A DNA stretch of 64,000 bases. Origin: Methylococcaceae bacterium (GTDB lineage: Bacteria > Pseudomonadota > Gammaproteobacteria > Methylococcales > Methylococcaceae). The notes below the pieces were generated by a model. That model saw only the letters and a program-made list of their open reading frames with translations, did not search any database and was not told where the DNA came from. The DNA lies in NCBI GenBank assembly GCA_044237765.1, contig JBIIEQ010000010.1, positions 468 to 64,467 of the forward strand. Direction: 5' to 3'. The position numbers and the translations under genes were made by a program. Below are positions 34,547 to 48,485 of the stretch, piece by piece (position 1 is the first letter of the stretch; the number at the start of each line of letters is the position of its first letter).

Positions 34547-34735
34547 TCAAAGACCGGCGATGATAGCGACCAGCAGCAGAATGAAGAGAATCCCGACAGT
34601 GACGGACATCGTGAACCAGCTCCACTTCGGGGTTGCCACAGAGAGGGTTTCACCGCTTTCATCAACACCGGCACCGCAGTTGCTGCAAACAACGGCTTTG
34701 TCCTTCAGTTCGCTTCCACAATGACGGCAAAACAT
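34547..34735 (-). CDS. Small zinc-ribbon protein with C-terminal TM helix
   Basis: MFCRHCGSELKDKAVVCSNCG (CxxC..CxxC), then WSWFTMSVTVGILFILLLVAIIAGL. 62 aa. Confidence 0.55.
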   Translation of the reverse strand: MFCRHCGSELKDKAVVCSNCGAGVDESGETLSVATPKWSWFTMSVTVGILFILLLVAIIAGL

Positions 34736-35080
34736 GGGCGGTCCTCAAGTTCAGTTGATCGGGTTCCAATGGCCGAGAGCATAGCTCAAGCAGCTGGGGG
34801 TTTCCATTCGTCGATTGATTGACCGGGTTTCCGCTGAGTTTGAACGGATGATGGTTTGTGTTGACCCAGCGCAAGCCTTGGCAGCGGCGACTGGATGAAG
34901 ACTTGCTAAAAGTGGCAAATGTGCAGAACGGAGACCGCTGTGTGAGAATATGTGCCGCTATCGCTCCGGTTAACAAGGCGGGATATTTGCGAGGTGCGGC
35001 CTACCGAGCCGACCTTATGTATGGCCTTTCATGGCGCTGATAGCTCTCATCATTCAACAACTATCGAGGTTCACCACTTA

Positions 35081-35410
35081 ATGAGCAAGAATAAATTCTC
35101 CACTTTCCTGGGTGCGGCTGTCGCAAGTTCTTTGGTGGGAGTCGCTGGAGCGAGCGAGAACCCATTTGCGGCGAAGGACTTGACGTCCGGTTACGTCCAA
35201 TTGGCTGAAGCGGGCAAGGAAACGAAGGAAATGGTCTGCGGCGAAGGAAAATGCGGTGGGCAAAAGATGCAGAGCCCCGAAATGAACTGCGGTGCCATGA
35301 TGGAACAGGCCAAGAAAACGCCGGACCAGGAAAGCAAGGCAATGGAAGGGAAGTGTGCCGGAATGAATATGGGCCAGCCCGCCAACGCCCCGGCTACCCC
35401 GAGCAACTAA
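35081..35410 (+). CDS. HvfA/bufferin-like Sec-exported RiPP precursor (Cys/Met-rich metallophore precursor)
   Basis: 109 aa. Signal peptide MSKNKFSTFLGAAVASSLVGVAGA. Core has GEGKCGG and MEGKCAG plus MVCG and MNCGA (4 Cys, 8 Met in 85 residues). Sits directly upstream of DUF692 + DUF2063. ATG 35081 was chosen over the track start 34952. Confidence 0.72.
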   Translation: MSKNKFSTFLGAAVASSLVGVAGASENPFAAKDLTSGYVQLAEAGKETKEMVCGEGKCGGQKMQSPEMNCGAMMEQAKKTPDQESKAMEGKCAGMNMGQPANAPATPSN

Positions 35411-35431
35411 ATCGGTCTAAACCCAGTTGTC

Positions 35432-36283
35432 ATGCCGGCATCGAGCCGATTTCCGGTTTATGGCGCTGGCTTAGGCTTGAGGCGGGCCTTGCTGGGCCCG
35501 CTCTCCGAGCTGAAACCGGCTCAGGTAGACTTCTACGAGGTTGCCCCAGAAAATTGGATGCGTGTGGGGGGGCGGTTCGGCAAGCAGTTTCGTGCGCTGA
35601 CTGAATCCCACCCCTGTTGCTGTCACGGTCTTTCCCTCTCTCTGGGATCTCCTGCTCCGCTTGACGAGCTGTTTCTCAAGGAACTCAAAACGTTTCTTGA
35701 TACTCACCACATTAGCAGTTACAGCGAACACCTAAGTTACTGCTCCGATGAGGGTCATCTTTATGATCTCATGCCGATTCCTTTCACCGAGGAAGCGGTT
35801 CATTACATCGCCGAACGTATTCGTCGTACTCAGACGATCCTCGATCGTCGCATCGCCCTCGAGAATATTTCCTACTATGCGGCGCCCGGAAAAGCCCTGG
35901 ATGAATGCGATTTCCTCTTGGCTGTGCTTGATGAGGCTGACTGCGACCTTTTGCTTGATGTAAACAATGTCTACGTCAACAGTATCAACCACGATTATGA
36001 CGCTGTGTCCTTCATTGATTCGATGCCGGCGGAGAAGATTGTAGGTCTTCATGTGGCGGGTCACTATGTCGAGGCCGAAGATTTTTTGATCGACACCCAT
36101 GGGGCGGCTGTCATCGATCCTGTGTGGCGTTTGCTGGACCGGGTTTATTCGAATTTCGGTGTGGTTCCAACCCTGCTGGAGCGGGATTTCAATCTGCCTC
36201 CACTGCCCGAATTGTTGATAGAGATCGACGAAATCAAGCGGCTTCAGCTGGCTCACGCTCCATTGGCGCTCCGCTATGCCTGA
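35432..36283 (+). CDS. DUF692 / MNIO-family RiPP maturase (HvfB/BufB/MbnB-like)
   Basis: [11 protein letters not shown]...[47 protein letters not shown] are hallmarks of the UPF0276/DUF692 TIM-barrel. Confidence 0.88.
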
Positions 36284-37040
36284 GTTTCTGTACGATTTTC
36301 AGCGCACCCAGGCCGCCTTTGCTGCCTACATCCGCGATCCGGAGGGAGTGATCCCGCCGAGCGATGTTTCTTGTCAGCGAATGGCCGCTTACCGTGACCT
36401 GTTCTTCAATAACATTGAAAACTTTATTGCGACCGCCTTTCCGGTATCGAAGAGTGTGCTGGGTGTAGAAGCCTGGCGATCCTTGATTAGAGATTTCTAT
36501 CGGGGGCACCACTGCAAAACACCATTGTTCATCGAAATTGCCGAGGAGTTTCTTGAATATCTATCCAATGAACGGTCAGAGGAGTTAGTCGACCCACCTT
36601 TCCTCCTTGAATTGGCACATTACGAATGGGTAGAACTCGCCCTAGCCGTCTCAGAAGAGGAGCTGCCGGAGGCCGGTAATGCATCCGGTAGGTCGATTCT
36701 GGATGACTGCATTTCCCTGTCGCCCGTGGCTTGGCCGGTAGCGTATCGATTTCCTGTGCATCGCATAGGCCCGAATTTCAAGCCGTCAGCTCCCGATGGA
36801 ACGCTGACCTTTCTTGTGGTGTACCGGAATCAGGAAGACCTGGTCCGGTTCATGGAGCTCAATCAGGTTTCATATCGTCTGCTTCAGTCGTTGGATGATT
36901 CGCCCGGGCAGACGGTTCGCGAGCATTTGTTGATGATTGCTCATGAGCTTCAGCATCCGGAGCCGGATATGGTGCTGGAGTTCGGTGTGGATCTGATCCG
37001 TAACCTGCATCTAAAGGGCCTGATCAGGCTTCTTGGCTGA
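36276..37040 (+). CDS. DUF2063 protein (HvfC/BufC-type peptide-modification partner)
   Basis: [47 protein letters not shown]. 8-nt overlap with the DUF692 gene. Confidence 0.82.
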
Positions 37041-37065: not shown

Positions 37066-37087
37066 GCCCCGAGATGGGGCTTTTTTT
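37066..37087 (+). terminator. Rho-independent terminator of the hvf-like operon
   Basis: GCCCC-gagat-GGGGC followed by TTTTTTT. A second weaker hairpin aaacca-gctct-tggttt lies just upstream. Confidence 0.65.
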
Positions 37088-37203
37088 GTGCCATTAAATG
37101 CCCCATTATGGTGCGAATTGTGGGTGGTGTGGTCTCTGGCTGACCAAGCATCCTCATCCTCATCATCGCAATCTTCTGGCCCCCAAATTGCTTGGTACTT
37201 GTT

Positions 37204-42374: not shown

Positions 42375-42651
42375 CCGCCCCTGTCCGAATGATGCCGTTC
42401 TGCATGAATCACCCCCGGCTTGAGATCGGGCGACCTCAAGCGGGTCTTGCCTTGGCCGGGTGCCTCGATATGCCAATATTGCTCGGATTGAATGGTGGAG
42501 CCTAAACGACGATAATGCCCGCAATTCGGAAGTCGTCGTTCTCAAATCAAGTCTTGTCCCGATTGTCACTTGGCTATCAGTTAAGTTGCAAAAGGGGTGG
42601 GATTATGCGCGGCGCTTTATACCAACCAAAGAGCACCCCACCACAGGACGC

Positions 42652-43221
42652 ATGGAAGAACTCGACGAGGAACTGGTCAGGCGCGTCCAACGGGGTGATA
42701 AGAAAGCCTTTGATGTGCTGGTCAGAAAATATCAGTACAAGATCGCCCAACTGATCAACCGTTACATCAAGGACCAGCATGAAGCGCTGGATGTTGCTCA
42801 AGAGACCTTCATCAAGGCTTACCGTGCCCTGCCTGGCTTTCGCGGGGACAGCGCTTTCTACACCTGGCTGTACCGCATCGCCATCAATACCGCGAAGAAC
42901 CATCTGTCAATGCGGTCTCGTCGACCATCGGGCGATGAGATAGAAATCGAGGATGCGGAACAATTCGAGTCCGGTGGACGTCTGAGGAACTGCGAAACTC
43001 CAGAAGGTCTGCTTTTGACCGAGGAGATCGCCGTCGCGATTCAGGATGCTTTGAAGAAGCTTCCCGATGAACTCAGAACAGCGATCACCTTGCGGGAGTT
43101 TGAGGGATTAAGCTATGAGGAGATAGCCCAGGTAATGGGCTGTCCGGTTGGAACGGTGAGGTCCCGAATTTTCCGTGCGCGAGAGGCGATAGATAAACGA
43201 CTTGAACCCCTGATTAGGTAG
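42652..43221 (+). CDS. rpoE: ECF sigma factor RpoE (AlgU-like)
   Basis: LVRRVQRGDKKAFDVLVRKYQYKI, SAFYTWLYRIAINTAKN, LSYEEIAQVMGCPVGTVRSRIFRAR. Start at MEELDEE (ATG 42652). Confidence 0.92.
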   Translation: MEELDEELVRRVQRGDKKAFDVLVRKYQYKIAQLINRYIKDQHEALDVAQETFIKAYRALPGFRGDSAFYTWLYRIAINTAKNHLSMRSRRPSGDEIEIEDAEQFESGGRLRNCETPEGLLLTEEIAVAIQDALKKLPDELRTAITLREFEGLSYEEIAQVMGCPVGTVRSRIFRAREAIDKRLEPLIR

Positions 43222-43228
43222 GAACACG

Positions 43229-43747
43229 ATGAACACTGAAGACAATGGCCAAAAATTGAGCGCCCTGCTCGACGAAGAATTGGGTTATCACGATTCTCTC
43301 TCCCTGATGAGTCGGCTTGAGAGCGACGGGGAGTTGAGTGCCAAGCTGCATCGCTATGCCGTGGTCAAGGAATGTATGAAATCCGGGAGCCCGTTGGTTC
43401 CTGATGCGGATTTTGTCGATCGGGTCCATGCATCGCTTGCTGAGGAGCCTGTGGTCCTTGCACCGCGCACTATGCGTAAGCCGGTCGGGGAAAAAGTCGC
43501 CACTTATGCGATCGCAGCCTCCATGGCTGTGATTGCTTTGCTCGTGGGGCGCTCCTTAACTGATTATTCACCTGACAGGGCCGGCCAACTGTTGGCCCAA
43601 GCGGAAATGACCAGCCCGGTCACTCAGGCATCGATGGAGCCTGAATTGCGTGATTATCTCGCGCTTCACAATGAATCTACCTACCTCTCAGGTAGCCAGG
43701 GCATGATGCCTTCGATCCGGTTAGTGAGCGGGTCAGTTGGGCGCTAA
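43229..43747 (+). CDS. rseA: Anti-sigma-E factor RseA/MucA
   Basis: LSALLDEELG N-terminal anti-sigma motif, central TM (ATYAIAASMAVIALLV), periplasmic tail. Confidence 0.82.
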   Translation: MNTEDNGQKLSALLDEELGYHDSLSLMSRLESDGELSAKLHRYAVVKECMKSGSPLVPDADFVDRVHASLAEEPVVLAPRTMRKPVGEKVATYAIAASMAVIALLVGRSLTDYSPDRAGQLLAQAEMTSPVTQASMEPELRDYLALHNESTYLSGSQGMMPSIRLVSGSVGR

Positions 43748-44759
43748 CGACAGGTCAAGGCTGCAGGTGGCTCGATTTTTCTCAAGCTCTCGAACGTCCA
43801 CTTTATTCCTCGCTGTCCTCAGTCTAAGCCCACTCCCGTTGTGGTCAGGGCAAGCCTCGGTGAAGCCCACAACCGGTGTTGAGTGGCTGCAGGGTATGCG
43901 TCAGGCCGCCGGTTCGCTGAATTACCAAGGGGTTGTTGCTTACATCAAGGATCAGCAGGTCGATAGTTTCAAGCTTTATCATCAAGTCATCGACGGTAAG
44001 GAACGCGAGCGACTGGTTGCAATGAACAGCCCTTTCAGGGAGGTTCTACGCGCCGATGGTAACGTGGCGAGATATACCGCCGACTCGCATCAGGTGGTGG
44101 TTGAGACAAGGTCATCGAATCAATCCGTACTCATCAACCTGCCTGAGGATACCTCCCTGCTGGATCGGTATTACCGGATCAACCTGCGTGGCCAGGAGTA
44201 TGTGGCTGGCGCCTTGACTCAGGTGGTGGCGCTGGAGCCGAAGGATGCCTACCGTTACAGTCGGCTACTATGGATTGATACCTCGACACATCTTCCGCTC
44301 AAGCTGGAAGTCCTGAATGAGGACGGGATGTCCGTGGAGCAAATGGTTTTTACCACCATCAACACCAAAGATCTGATAGCGCCACAGGACTTGCAGCCAT
44401 CGGTTCAGGCGACTTCAGCCATCACGCAGATCAGTCATCGGGAAACCCTTCCGGTGGACGGCTTGAAGTGGACTTTCAAGTCTGTGCCAGAGGGGTTTCA
44501 GATCCTCTCTTACTCTGTCCTCAAGCGACCCCCGCTGAACTCGCCGGTGGAGCACGTCCTGATGAGTGATGGGTTTTCATCGGTTTCGGTTTACATCGAA
44601 AAGCGAGACGCTCGCATCAATCCGGGTGCCAGAAAAATCGGTGCTGCGAGTGTCGACTCGGTTAAGTTGGGTGATTTTGAAGTTACCGTCATGGGTGAGG
44701 TGCCCCAAAAGACCGTTGAGCTCATCGCAAATGGTGTCCGAATAAAGGGCGATAATTGA
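43737..44759 (+). CDS. rseB: Sigma-E regulatory protein RseB/MucB
   Basis: WLQGMRQAAGSLNYQGVVAYIKD, LLWIDTSTHLPLKLEVL. TTG start overlapping rseA, with an alternative GTG at 43767. Confidence 0.82.
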   Translation: MGANDRSRLQVARFFSSSRTSTLFLAVLSLSPLPLWSGQASVKPTTGVEWLQGMRQAAGSLNYQGVVAYIKDQQVDSFKLYHQVIDGKERERLVAMNSPFREVLRADGNVARYTADSHQVVVETRSSNQSVLINLPEDTSLLDRYYRINLRGQEYVAGALTQVVALEPKDAYRYSRLLWIDTSTHLPLKLEVLNEDGMSVEQMVFTTINTKDLIAPQDLQPSVQATSAITQISHRETLPVDGLKWTFKSVPEGFQILSYSVLKRPPLNSPVEHVLMSDGFSSVSVYIEKRDARINPGARKIGAASVDSVKLGDFEVTVMGEVPQKTVELIANGVRIKGDN

Positions 44760-45193
44760 TGCTCGAGGCTGAAGCGGTCGTTGCAGATGTTTCGGGCGGT
44801 GCTGTTGTGCTGAGAGTGATTCCCCGGACCTGCAATGGCTGCAAAATATCTTGCTCAAAATCTGAAGGGCTTGACCCCAAATGTTTCGAGTTCAAAAACC
44901 TTAGCCTGATATCATCGACCGGTTTATCCGTTGGTCAGCCTGTTTTTCTTGATATACCCCGTGAGCGGCTGATAAGCGCCGCATTCCTCCTCTACCTTGC
45001 TCCATTGTTCGGGTTTCTGTTCGGCATGGTGTTAGGCAATTGGGTTGCTGCACGGTTTGTTCCCGAAATTTCCGAGTCATGCGCGATGATCGGTGGTTTG
45101 CTGGGCTTAACCTCGGTATTTCGTTGCCTGTCGAGCCAGAGAGTCGGTTTGAGTCTGTTACAAGTTGTGCCAACGATCAGGCCGTTGCGCTGA
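44756..45193 (+). CDS. rseC: RseC/MucC family sigma-E regulator
   Basis: N-terminal soluble segment with C..C..C, then two TM helices. Conserved position after rseB. Confidence 0.72.
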   Translation: MMLEAEAVVADVSGGAVVLRVIPRTCNGCKISCSKSEGLDPKCFEFKNLSLISSTGLSVGQPVFLDIPRERLISAAFLLYLAPLFGFLFGMVLGNWVAARFVPEISESCAMIGGLLGLTSVFRCLSSQRVGLSLLQVVPTIRPLR

Positions 45194-45238
45194 TCATTCA
45201 TCAAAGCTTTTTCGAATTTTCTTCCGCTGGAGTCACCG

Positions 45239-46678
45239 ATGCTGAAAGCCACATGGCGCCTCATTTATTTGCTAGTGCCCGTTTTTTTAATTGCTTCTCC
45301 CAGCTACGGGCAACTGCCTGACTTTACGGGTCTGGTCGAGCAAAATAATGCGGCTGTAGTGAACATCAGCACCACACAGAAAGTGGCTGCCAACCCAATG
45401 CAGCCTCAACTGCCCGAGGGTTTGGAGATTCCGGAAGGTGCGCCTTTCGATGAGTTGTTGAAGCGCTACTTTGGCGAGGGCGGACCTGGTGCACCAGGAG
45501 GTCCAGGTGGCGGTGAGCCGGATGATGCGAAGTCGCTGGGTTCCGGTTTCATCATTTCGCCCGATGGCTATGTCATTACCAATCATCACGTCATCAAGGA
45601 CGCTGAGGAAGTGGTTGTTCGTTTGCAGGATCGGCGTGAACTGGTTGCCAAAATTGTGGGCTCTGACAAGCGCAGTGATATCGCTCTGCTGAAGCTCGAA
45701 GCCAAGGATCTTCCCGTAGTGAAGTTGGGGTCATCGGATGAGCTGAAGGTCGGGGAATGGGTGCTGGCCATCGGTTCTCCGTTTGGTTTCGATCACTCGG
45801 TCACGGCCGGTATCGTCAGCGCCAAGGGCCGAAGCTTGCCCAGCGACAACTATGTACCTTTCATCCAGACGGATGTGGCGATCAATCCGGGCAACTCCGG
45901 GGGGCCTTTGTTCAACCTCGAGGGTGAGGTCATCGGTGTCAATTCGCAGATCTACAGCCGGACTGGTGGCTTCATGGGACTTTCCTTTGCCATCCCGGTC
46001 GATGTGGCCATGCAGGTAGTTGAGCAGTTGAAGTCGCAGGGGAAGGTTTCCCGCGGTTGGCTGGGCGTGCAAATTCAGGATGTTACCCGTGAACTGGCCG
46101 AATCCTTCGGTATGAAAAAGCCGCAGGGTGCACTGGTGTCGAAGATCATGCCCAAAAGCCCTGCAGGAGAATCGGGAATTCAGATCGGTGACATCATCGA
46201 GGAATTCAATGGCAGGGAAATCAATACCTCAGCCGAACTGCCGCCGATGGTAGGCACGACCAAAATTGGGGAAACAGCGAGGCTGAAGGTGCTGCGGGAG
46301 GGCAAATCGCTGGAGATTCCCGTCAAGATTGGTGCGCTGCCCGACGAGGAGCCTGCCATGGCGAGCAAGGAAGGGCCTTCCGTCGGCGACAAGGTAGCCC
46401 GATTGAATGTTGCTGTCGCCAATCCGACCGACGAGCAACGCGAACAGATGGAGCTGCCGAAGAGAGGCGGTGTTGTCATCATGGGCGTCAAGCCGGGGCC
46501 GGCAGCCGAAGCAGGTATTCGTCGCGGAGATGTCATTCTCCGCATAGGGGATCAAGCCGTTCGGGACGCCAAGCATTTCGGTGACATCATCCAGGTGTTG
46601 CCAAAAGGAAAGAGTGTCGCGGTCCTGGTGCAACGTCAGGGGGGATCACAGTTCCTCGCCATTAAACTCAAGGATTGA
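45239..46678 (+). CDS. degP: Periplasmic serine endoprotease DegP/MucD (two PDZ domains)
   Basis: [42 protein letters not shown] (His-Asp-Ser triad), two PDZ repeats. Confidence 0.92.
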
Positions 46679-46682
46679 GGCT

Positions 46683-48485
46683 GTGTCGGATCAAAAGCAC
46701 ATACGCAACTTTTCTATCATCGCTCACATCGATCATGGCAAATCCACCCTGGCGGATCGTTTTATCCAGACCTGTGGCGGGCTCAGCGAGCGGGAGATGT
46801 CTGCTCAGGTGCTCGATTCAATGGATATCGAGCGAGAACGTGGGATTACCATAAAGGCGCAAAGCGTTACCCTCGGCTACAAGGCTAGGGATGGACAGAC
46901 ATATCAGCTGAACCTGATCGACACGCCCGGGCATGTCGATTTTTCCTATGAGGTTTCGCGATCACTTGCGGCGTGTGAGGGCGCTCTGCTTGTCGTGGAT
47001 GCGGCCCAGGGTGTAGAGGCCCAGAGCGTGGCCAACTGTTATACGGCGATCGAGCAGGGCCTGGAGGTCATCCCTGTCCTGAACAAGATCGATCTGCCTT
47101 CTGCCGAACCGGATCGCGTCTGTACGGAAATCGAAGAAATAATTGGCGTGCCGGCGGATGAAGCCCTGCGCATCAGTGCCAAGACCGGGCTAGGTGTCGA
47201 AGATCTGCTTGAGCAACTGGTTGCCAAGGTACCCGCGCCAGAGGGTGATCCTGCTGCGCCCTTGCAGGCACTGATCATCGATTCATGGTTCGACAATTAC
47301 CTGGGCGTGGTGTCGCTGGTGCGGGTGGTCAATGGTTCGATCAAACGCAAGCAGAAGATGGTGATGATGTCGACGGGCAAGAGCCACATCGTCGATAAAC
47401 TCGGTGTGTTTACGCCCAAATCACTCAACAAGGAAAGCCTCGATACCGGCGAGGTGGGTTTTGTCATTGCCGGCATCAAGGATATATTTGGGGCGCCTGT
47501 GGGGGACACGATCACGGCGACCGATGAGCCATGCGAGCAGGCATTGCCCGGTTTTCAACAGGTTCAGCCGCGCGTGTTCGCGGGTCTCTATCCGGTTGAG
47601 TCCGATGATTACGAGGATCTGCGCGAAGCGCTAAACAAGCTGAACCTCAATGATGCCGCGCTGCAGTTCGAGCCCGAAACCTCCCAGGCGCTCGGCTTTG
47701 GTTTTCGCTGTGGGTTTCTCGGAATGCTCCATATGGAGATCATCCAAGAACGTCTTGAGCGTGAGTATGATCTCGATCTCATTACTACGGCCCCCACCGT
47801 GGTTTACGAGATTCTCAAATCCGATGAAACCACCATCGAGATCGATAATCCATCCAAATTGCCTCCGCCGAACGAGATTGTCGAGATTCGTGAGCCCATC
47901 ATCGAGGCCAACATCCTCGTTCCTCAAGATTATTTGGGCAATGTCATCAGTCTGTGCATCGAAAAGCGCGGTGTGCAGCGTCGCATGCAGTACACCGGCG
48001 GGCAGGTAGCCATCAGTTTCGAGTTGCCGCTGAGCGAGGTGGTCCTGGATTTCTTTGACCGACTTAAATCCGTCAGCCGGGGCTTTGCCTCATTTGATTA
48101 CGAGTTCCTGCGATTCCAGGCGGCGCCGCTCATCAAGCTCGATATTCTCATCAATGGCGAGCGGGTCGATGCCCTTTCCTTGATCGTGCACCGGGATATC
48201 AGTCAATCCCGCGGGCGCGATCTGGTTGAAAAAATGAAGGATCTGATTCCCCGGCAGATGTACGAAGTAGCCATTCAGGCCGCGATCGGCTCCAAGATCA
48301 TTGCCCGATCCTCGGTAAAGGCCATGCGCAAGAATGTTCTGGCCAAATGTTACGGCGGTGATATCACGCGAAAGAAAAAGCTGCTCGAAAAGCAGAAGGC
48401 GGGTAAGAAGCGTATGAAGCAGGTAGGTAAGATCGATATTCCGCAAGAAGCCTTCCTCGCTGTTCTACGCGTCAATAAGGATTAA
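46683..48485 (+). CDS. lepA: Elongation factor 4
   Basis: [34 protein letters not shown]-terminal LepA domain. GTG start at 46683 gives 600 aa; the track start 46581 overlaps degP. Confidence 0.93.

Follow-up and report, generated by a model that had tools for sequence, protein, structure and literature searches.

A complete hvfABC operon in a Methylococcaceae genome with a short, methionine-rich precursor of a probable copper-binding captophorin

Gene content and organization of the locus

The window analyzed here is a 64,000-nucleotide stretch of a Methylococcaceae bacterium (GCA_044237765.1, contig JBIIEQ010000010.1, positions 468 to 64,467 of the forward strand), taken from a metagenome-assembled genome (MAG) of 3.4 Mb that is 99.97% complete; all coordinates are positions in this window. 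Between 35081 and 37040 three open reading frames lie on one strand: hvfA (35081-35410, plus strand, 109 aa), hvfB (35432-36283, plus strand, 283 aa) and hvfC (36276-37040, plus strand, 254 aa). A gap of 21 nt separates hvfA from hvfB, and hvfB and hvfC overlap by 8 nt (ATG...TGA). The initial annotation, made from the sequence letters, had described such a three-gene operon closed by a terminator at 37066-37087 and had read it as a Sec-type precursor followed by DUF692 and DUF2063 proteins, that is, an HvfABC-type operon for a peptide that ribosomes make and that is then modified post-translationally (RiPP), matured by an MNIO enzyme. We confirmed the coordinates, and the profile searches it had proposed placed all three proteins above their NCBIfam cut-offs with matching Pfam domains in the two enzymes. 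Gene content and membership of curated families are thus established. Taken together with the evidence below, the locus very probably represents a complete, vertically inherited hvfABC operon for a Lys-Cys captophorin of the Buf_EGKCG/oxazolin type, with a copper-binding product.

The start of hvfA at 35081 is supported by the pattern of conservation, since similarity among orthologous proteins sets in at MSK and the DNA 5' of this point shows no conservation beyond a GAGG ribosome-binding site. A 129-aa version of the gene call found in one database had no such conservation support. Gene order is fully kept across the genus and reads rsgA, M48 peptidase, orn, a zinc-ribbon gene on the opposite strand, hvfA, hvfB, hvfC, ntrB, ntrC and glgP, which argues for vertical inheritance of hvfABC. 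The closest public loci are in MAGs labelled Methylococcaceae or "Methylococcus sp." from lakes and rivers.

The maturase HvfB and its partner HvfC

HvfB scored 425.9 bits in the HvfB equivalog model NF003818 (cut-off 360), the match spanning 264 of 264 profile positions, and matched the DUF692/MNIO domain PF05114 with an E-value of 5e-101. In an alignment to the Histophilus somni MNIO (3BWW) and to MbnB (7DZ9), all nine iron ligands were conserved (H65, H100, E144, D176, N179, H207, D221, H223 and E250); the loss of these ligands, which the initial annotation had named as grounds for abandoning its reading of the operon, was not observed. N179, D221 and H223 correspond to N175, D242 and H244 (site 3) of the characterised HvfB, where substitution abolishes activity, and D252, also conserved, is the equivalent of the catalytic-base Asp in FonB. 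The catalytic residues are therefore intact. Furthermore, R17-R18 and D252-F253 match the substrate determinants described for the Lys-Cys class (Gadgil et al., PMC13097082). An insert of about 22 residues present in the H. somni protein is missing from HvfB of the window.

Other MNIO identities were rejected on their scores: the methanobactin enzyme MbnB (TIGR04159, 36.1 bits against a cut-off of 325), the bufferin enzyme BufB (NF050167, 260.5 against 310), and ApyH and ChrH, both of which scored under their curated cut-offs. HvfB is the sole MNIO in the genome, and our searches found neither a second MNIO nor a second HvfA-type precursor elsewhere in it. Homologues of HvfB were present in 40 of 41 related genomes.

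HvfC is a DUF2063 type-1 MNIO partner (PME1) with a RiPP recognition element (RRE)-type domain at its C-terminus. It reached 293.9 bits against a cut-off of 142 in the HvfC equivalog model NF050145, carries PF09836 (DUF2063) at residues 11-96 and PF22106 at residues 149-244, and matches the Neisseria gonorrhoeae partner protein in PDB 3DEE (E-value 3e-7). It evolves fastest, with 43-54% identity where NtrC holds about 85%.

The precursor HvfA

HvfA begins with a predicted Sec signal peptide (residues 1-24, MSKNKFSTFLGAAVASSLVGVAGA) with cleavage at AGA|S, called by the n/h/c-region layout and the AXA rule. Behind it lies a conserved leader, ENPFAAKDLTSGYVQLAE, which follows the pattern E26-NPF..L..GY..AE-44 and whose NPF..L..GY core is common even to distant repeat-type relatives; this core is presumably recognised by HvfC. 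Four cysteines follow in the core region, in the contexts M-V-C53-G, E-G-K-C58-G, M-N-C70-G and E-G-K-C92-A, so that Gly or Ala stands after all four. Two EGKC(G/A)G motifs had been counted from the letters, and they were readily located as EGKCGG at residues 55-60 and EGKCAG at residues 89-94, with C53 and C70 as additional sites. C53 and C58 form a CGEGKC doublet (35237-35254, plus strand) in which a V-C-G site precedes a canonical EGKCG site. C70 (35288-35290, plus strand) is a non-canonical site within E-M-N-C-G-A-M-M, and C92 (35354-35356, plus strand) lies within A-M-E-G-K-C-A-G-M-N-M, with Ala after the Cys. Eight core methionines (M51, 63, 68, 73, 74, 88, 95 and 97) cluster around these sites.

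Conservation of the Cys and Met residues was seen at two depths. Among 11 orthologues at the genus and family level, C53, C58, C70 and C92 together with M51, M68, M73, M95 and M97 are invariant, as are the CGEGKC doublet as a whole and the stretch M68-N69-C70-G71-A72-M73. Across 65 HvfA sequences, down to 43% identity, C92, A93 and G94 remain invariant, and conservation reaches at least 90% at C58, C70, M68, M88 and M95.

The NCBIfam HvfA-family domain NF050137 matched HvfA at residues 53-72, taking in the CGEGKC doublet, with 23.5 bits against a cut-off of 19.5. Several observations weigh against the captophorin reading of the locus. This family-domain model is loose, it is the only one that HvfA passes, and the margin is 4 bits; the HvfA equivalog model NF050188 gave no match to HvfA at E <= 0.01, and close orthologues scored 18-20 bits in it against a cut-off of 95. 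HvfA also lacks the double-EGKCG repeats of 17 residues that typify the class. An AlphaFold2 model built on the 65-sequence alignment showed no confident fold (mean predicted local distance difference test score 52.7, predicted template modelling score 0.12); either the model is uninformative or HvfA is, as seems probable, disordered. No copper regulator or copper gene lies next to hvfABC. Finally, the related enzyme pair FonBC failed on a single-repeat substrate and showed context dependence (PMC13097082), and modification of the isolated C70 and C92 is therefore not assured. HvfA has one CGEGKCG doublet and two single sites, and we regard repeat units as a trait of the typical subtype that does not define the enzyme system.

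Distribution of the short precursor subtype

When the precursor was used as query, about 110 of the 121 cluster representatives retrieved belonged to the same short, Met-rich subtype, averaging 4 Cys and 8 Met, the latter making up 9% of the mature part. Among the 121 family members, 19 have three Cys, and some are without C53 or C70. Cultured carriers of the short subtype include Methylocaldum, Methylomagnum, Candidatus Methylocalor and Methylococcus geothermalis. Several members bear the NCBI name "HvfA family oxazolone/thioamide-modified RiPP metallophore", and in the genus of the window the HvfA protein is still annotated as hypothetical or low-complexity. Canonical HvfA precursors with many repeats occur in other families of the order. 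Two HvfA homologues departed from the common layout, one distant member with a Tat signal (TIGR01409) replacing Sec and the other fused to EF-hand domains (P0119 and P0114); variants of both sorts had been noted before.

Relation to characterised systems and expected chemistry

The chemistry of this class has been revised recently. In nontypeable Haemophilus influenzae the HvfBC enzymes modify HvfA at six Cys to give oxazolin, a Cu(I)-binding product; the modification was first assigned in 2024 as oxazolone/thioamide (PMC11252979). In 2026 both Gadgil et al. (PMC13097082) and the original laboratory (bioRxiv 10.64898/2026.06.05.730506) reassigned oxazolin to 5-thiooxazole on the basis of alkylation-assisted HMBC (heteronuclear multiple bond correlation), UV absorbance at 302-305 nm and direct comparison with methanobactin. 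Gadgil et al. named the class captophorins, comprising fontiphorin, oxazolin and gonophorin, all of which carry 5-thiooxazoles and bind Cu (PMC13097082). Bulbicupramide is counted with them. The description of EGKCG motifs as becoming oxazolone-thioamide, given in the initial annotation, has thus been superseded. That HvfA of the window would nevertheless carry oxazolone/thioamide pairs as in methanobactin is highly improbable: such pairs were the original 2024 assignment and the wording survives in NCBIfam descriptions, but two independent studies now assign thiooxazole, the original authors have adopted it, and HvfB scores 425.9 bits in the HvfB model against 36.1 in that of MbnB. We reject this chemistry on the 2026 reassignments. 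With them the chemical contrast between Hvf-type systems and bufferins is gone as well.

By analogy with these systems, HvfA would be made in the cytoplasm with its Sec signal peptide and NPF..L..GY leader, and HvfC, through its DUF2063 and RRE-type domains, would bind it and pair with the iron enzyme HvfB. HvfB would then use O2 to oxidise, by four electrons, those Cys residues that precede Gly or Ala, turning each target Cys into a 5-thiooxazole that uses the carbonyl of the preceding residue, with a loss of 4 Da per Cys. As many as four cysteines are candidate sites, two of them canonical (C58 and C92) and two non-canonical (C53 and C70). The modified peptide would be exported by Sec and cleaved after A24, giving a product of about 85 residues, largely disordered, which may bind Cu(I) in the periplasm via thiooxazole N/S donors, probably aided by the invariant flanking Met. 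Thiooxazole formation, export and copper binding are what we infer from the characterised relatives.

Data on FonBC suggest that HvfA may carry two to four rings. These enzymes require a small residue after Cys, accept Ala there, and tolerate Val, Ala, Arg or Thr before Cys (PMC13097082), so all four sites appear chemically admissible. It is possible, if somewhat doubtful, that modification stops at the canonical EGKC(G/A) cysteines C58 and C92, leaving C53 and C70 as thiols or as a disulfide in a mixed thiooxazole/thiol/thioether copper site. Such an outcome would agree with the finding that FonBC modified NVCGG-type substitutes only once, with context dependence, with the N-terminal region of H. 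influenzae HvfA, which keeps two unmodified Cys as a disulfide, and with the three-Cys family members and those lacking C53 or C70 described above. It sits less well with the Gly or Ala after all four Cys, the key FonBC requirement, with the tolerance of Val, Ala, Arg or Thr before Cys, and with the position of C53 inside the profile-matching CGEGKCG doublet.

The closest parallel in gene content is FonABC of Fontimonas thermophila, an environmental gammaproteobacterium (PMC13097082). The fon cluster is a minimal ABC set of precursor, MNIO and DUF2063 partner without DoxX, with EGKCG-type sites in the precursor and the same Arg-Arg and Asp-Phe determinants in the enzyme. FonA, however, has seven sites in repeats and its quoted fragments are Met-free, whereas HvfA of the window has four Cys, only one doublet and eight conserved Met. 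Similarly, H. influenzae HvfABC(X) (PMC11252979; bioRxiv 10.64898/2026.06.05.730506) shares a precursor with Sec signal and EGKCG motifs, HvfB and HvfC of the window pass its equivalog models, and a 5-thiooxazole Cu(I) binder is the expected product. Unlike the window's HvfA, which fails the HvfA equivalog model, its precursor has six sites in three AEGKCGEGKCG repeats as well as an N-terminal disulfide, and its operon includes the DoxX-like HvfX.

MmrABC of Microbulbifer, a copper-chelator cluster found genus-wide whose product bulbicupramide has lost 4 H per Cys (PMC12538549), resembles the locus as a three-gene MNIO/DUF2063 set with a conserved leader and a variable EGKCG core. MmrA differs in its 5-8 Cys, which are arranged in cassettes, and comes from a marine heterotroph. 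With fontiphorin and bulbicupramide both made and analysed, the view that products from environmental gammaproteobacteria are essentially uncharacterised no longer holds. Methanobactin operons (MbnABC) of Methylosinus and Methylocystis likewise use an MNIO to turn Cys of a ribosomal peptide into copper ligands in methanotroph hosts. They differ in the MNIO itself, in the partner protein, in their small secreted peptide with oxazolone/thioamide, and in their dedicated transport genes.

Bufferins, BufABC(D) of Caulobacter vibrioides (PMC11626156), are also Sec-exported, acquire 5-thiooxazoles from an MNIO and a DUF2063 partner, and bind copper in the periplasm. The locus had been called "HvfABC/bufferin-type", and of the two halves of this label the Hvf-type assignment stood and the bufferin-type one did not: bufferin precursors belong to the DUF2282 or Buf_6/12Cys families, HvfA was without any match in the Pfam search, DUF2282 included, and the BufB model scored HvfB under its cut-off. 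In addition, the buf1 operon is expressed via SigF, and NrsF sigma/anti-sigma genes stand beside Buf1 clusters, whereas no such regulator adjoins hvfABC. The reported lack of DoxX and sigma/anti-sigma genes was borne out. No DoxX (HvfX) was detected at cut-off genome-wide, the best match being 22.2 bits within a 904-aa open reading frame, and the arrangement is a known one: the fon cluster does without DoxX and BufD is dispensable in Caulobacter (PMC11626156), so the gene is optional. A dedicated sigma/anti-sigma pair for hvfABC was rejected, as the sole extracytoplasmic function (ECF) sigma gene of the neighbourhood (42460, about 5 kb off) belongs to an rpoE-rseABC-degP-lepA block.

Possible physiological role

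Copper buffering in the periplasm is the role we favour for the product, and it is the least certain part of the interpretation. The sole in vivo evidence comes from bufferins, which shield Caulobacter from copper in the periplasm (PMC11626156). MNIO-PME1 loci number more than 24,000 and occur in about half of Pseudomonadota reference genomes (PMC13097082), and about 2,000 Buf_EGKCG/oxazolin precursors were catalogued by Leprevost et al. With captophorin/Hvf operons so common and their chemistry settled, another copy alone adds little. The operon type is already described, and hvfABC of the window is an ordinary member with a mildly distinctive short, Met-rich precursor, in a lineage of methane oxidisers.

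The same biosynthesis could serve copper supply and not defence, the product acting in the periplasm as a carrier or store of Cu(I) for particulate methane monooxygenase (pMMO) in gammaproteobacterial methanotrophs without methanobactin genes. We consider this unlikely. In its favour, the host genome falls within the Methylococcaceae, HvfB is its sole MNIO and lies far under the MbnB cut-off, and nearly every genome of the order (40 of 41) has the operon. Its neighbours are housekeeping genes, no stress regulator is among them, and the promoter-like element is conserved and specific to the locus. Kenney and Rosenzweig pointed to the lack of mbn operons in Methylococcus and Methylomicrobium, for which chalkophores have nevertheless been suggested, and copper scavenging is counted among the possible roles of oxazolin (Manley 2024, PMC11252979). 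Against this, MNIO-PME1 clusters are spread through Pseudomonadota whether methanotroph or not, their typical inducers are excess copper, gold or oxidative stress, the in vivo evidence points to protection, and hvfABC has no transporter or pmo linkage.

Moreover, pmoA (PF02461) was not detected in the window's own assembly. Most other genera of the order carry it. Within the genus, 5 of 20 genomes carry it, and in two of these the gene is cut off where the contig ends; its absence from the window's assembly may thus reflect an assembly gap. Either the pmo operon was lost in assembly or binning, or some members genuinely lack it. In the literature we found nothing tying Hvf-type operons to methanotroph copper physiology, the nearest item being the mention of a DUF2282-type cluster for Methylocapsa gorgona.

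Periplasmic copper proteins typically bind Cu(I) through methionines. A further proposal is that the short, Met-rich, four-Cys HvfA is an adaptation specific to Methylococcaceae, in which thiooxazoles and Met thioethers would form mixed Cu(I) sites and the product would act as a constitutive periplasmic carrier that supplies or stores copper for pMMO; we regard it as distinctly improbable.

Whatever the role, a conserved short precursor subtype is defined here; it comprises about 110 cluster representatives, which have 3-4 Cys and a Met content of about 9%. The non-canonical sites of this subtype (V-C-G, N-C-G and K-C-A) with invariant flanking Met would widen the known substrate range, and these Met might give a mixed thiooxazole/thioether copper site. 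The operon is the sole MNIO system in a lineage that has a copper-dependent central enzyme and no methanobactin genes, and the cultured Methylocaldum and Methylomagnum, which carry the same subtype, make copper defence and copper supply testable against each other. If a pMMO-supply carrier were confirmed, it would explain part of the long-suspected, genetically unassigned chalkophore activity of gammaproteobacterial methanotrophs without methanobactin genes.

Promoter-like elements, terminator and neighbouring genes

Two conserved blocks stand out in the 345-nt spacer between hvfA and the zinc-ribbon gene, the rest of which is poorly conserved. One is an 11-mer, TGTGTGAGAAT (34939-34949, plus strand), which hardly varies among 19 orthologous spacers that otherwise align poorly. 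It forms part of a candidate hvfA promoter/operator at 34921-34949 (plus strand), composed of GTGCAG, a 17-nt spacer and the extended -10-like TG-n-GAGAAT. We read TGTGTGAGAAT, with GTGCAG 17 nt upstream, as a putative extended -10 promoter that would leave a leader of about 125 nt, with transcription of hvfA predicted from the conserved TGTGAGAAT element to start near 34956. A consensus promoter scan made no call at this site because its -35 is weak. The 11-mer occurs once in the 3.4-Mb genome, and a genome-wide regulon behind it was rejected, the element being unique to the hvf locus. The second block, AGAGCATAGC-N15-TTTCCAT (34776-34807), reads TGGAAA-17-TATGCT on the minus strand and is likely a sigma-70 promoter of the zinc-ribbon gene. 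A search of Rfam with the ~125-nt leader and the spacer gave no match below E = 0.88, and a riboswitch or other known RNA was rejected. No metal-responsive regulator adjoins hvfABC.

Downstream of hvfC, the intrinsic terminator at 37066-37087 (plus strand) consists of GCCCC-GAGAT-GGGGC followed by TTTTTTT (T7). A consensus scan found 3 terminator-like sites in the region where 2.9 were expected, so there is no enrichment. A GCCCC-loop-GGGGC hairpin with a T-run is kept after hvfC at no fewer than 9 of 14 orthologous loci, with varying loop sequence, and we therefore take it as a real conserved feature.

Immediately 5' of ntrB, at 37177-37192, lies a sigma-54-type -24/-12 element, TGGCCC-N5-TTGCT, and the same type of element (e.g. 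TGGCCCCTTTATTGCTT) is found in several intergenic sequences of the genus. The ntrBC genes thus appear to be read, independently of the hvf operon, from a sigma-54 promoter of their own that leaves a very short leader. At 42460-48485 the window holds an ordinary envelope-stress block of rpoE (ECF sigma), rseA, rseB, rseC, a degP-like protease and lepA, unrelated to the hvf operon.

Divergent from hvfA, a gene at 34547-34735 (minus strand) encodes a 62-aa zinc-ribbon protein (PF13240) with a CxxC-x11-CxxC motif and one C-terminal transmembrane helix. It stays beside hvfA in other genera of the Methylococcaceae, including cases in which orn has been displaced by about 1.2 kb, and is absent beside the repeat-type hvfA genes of other families. 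This adjacency may reflect a functional link or only inherited synteny.

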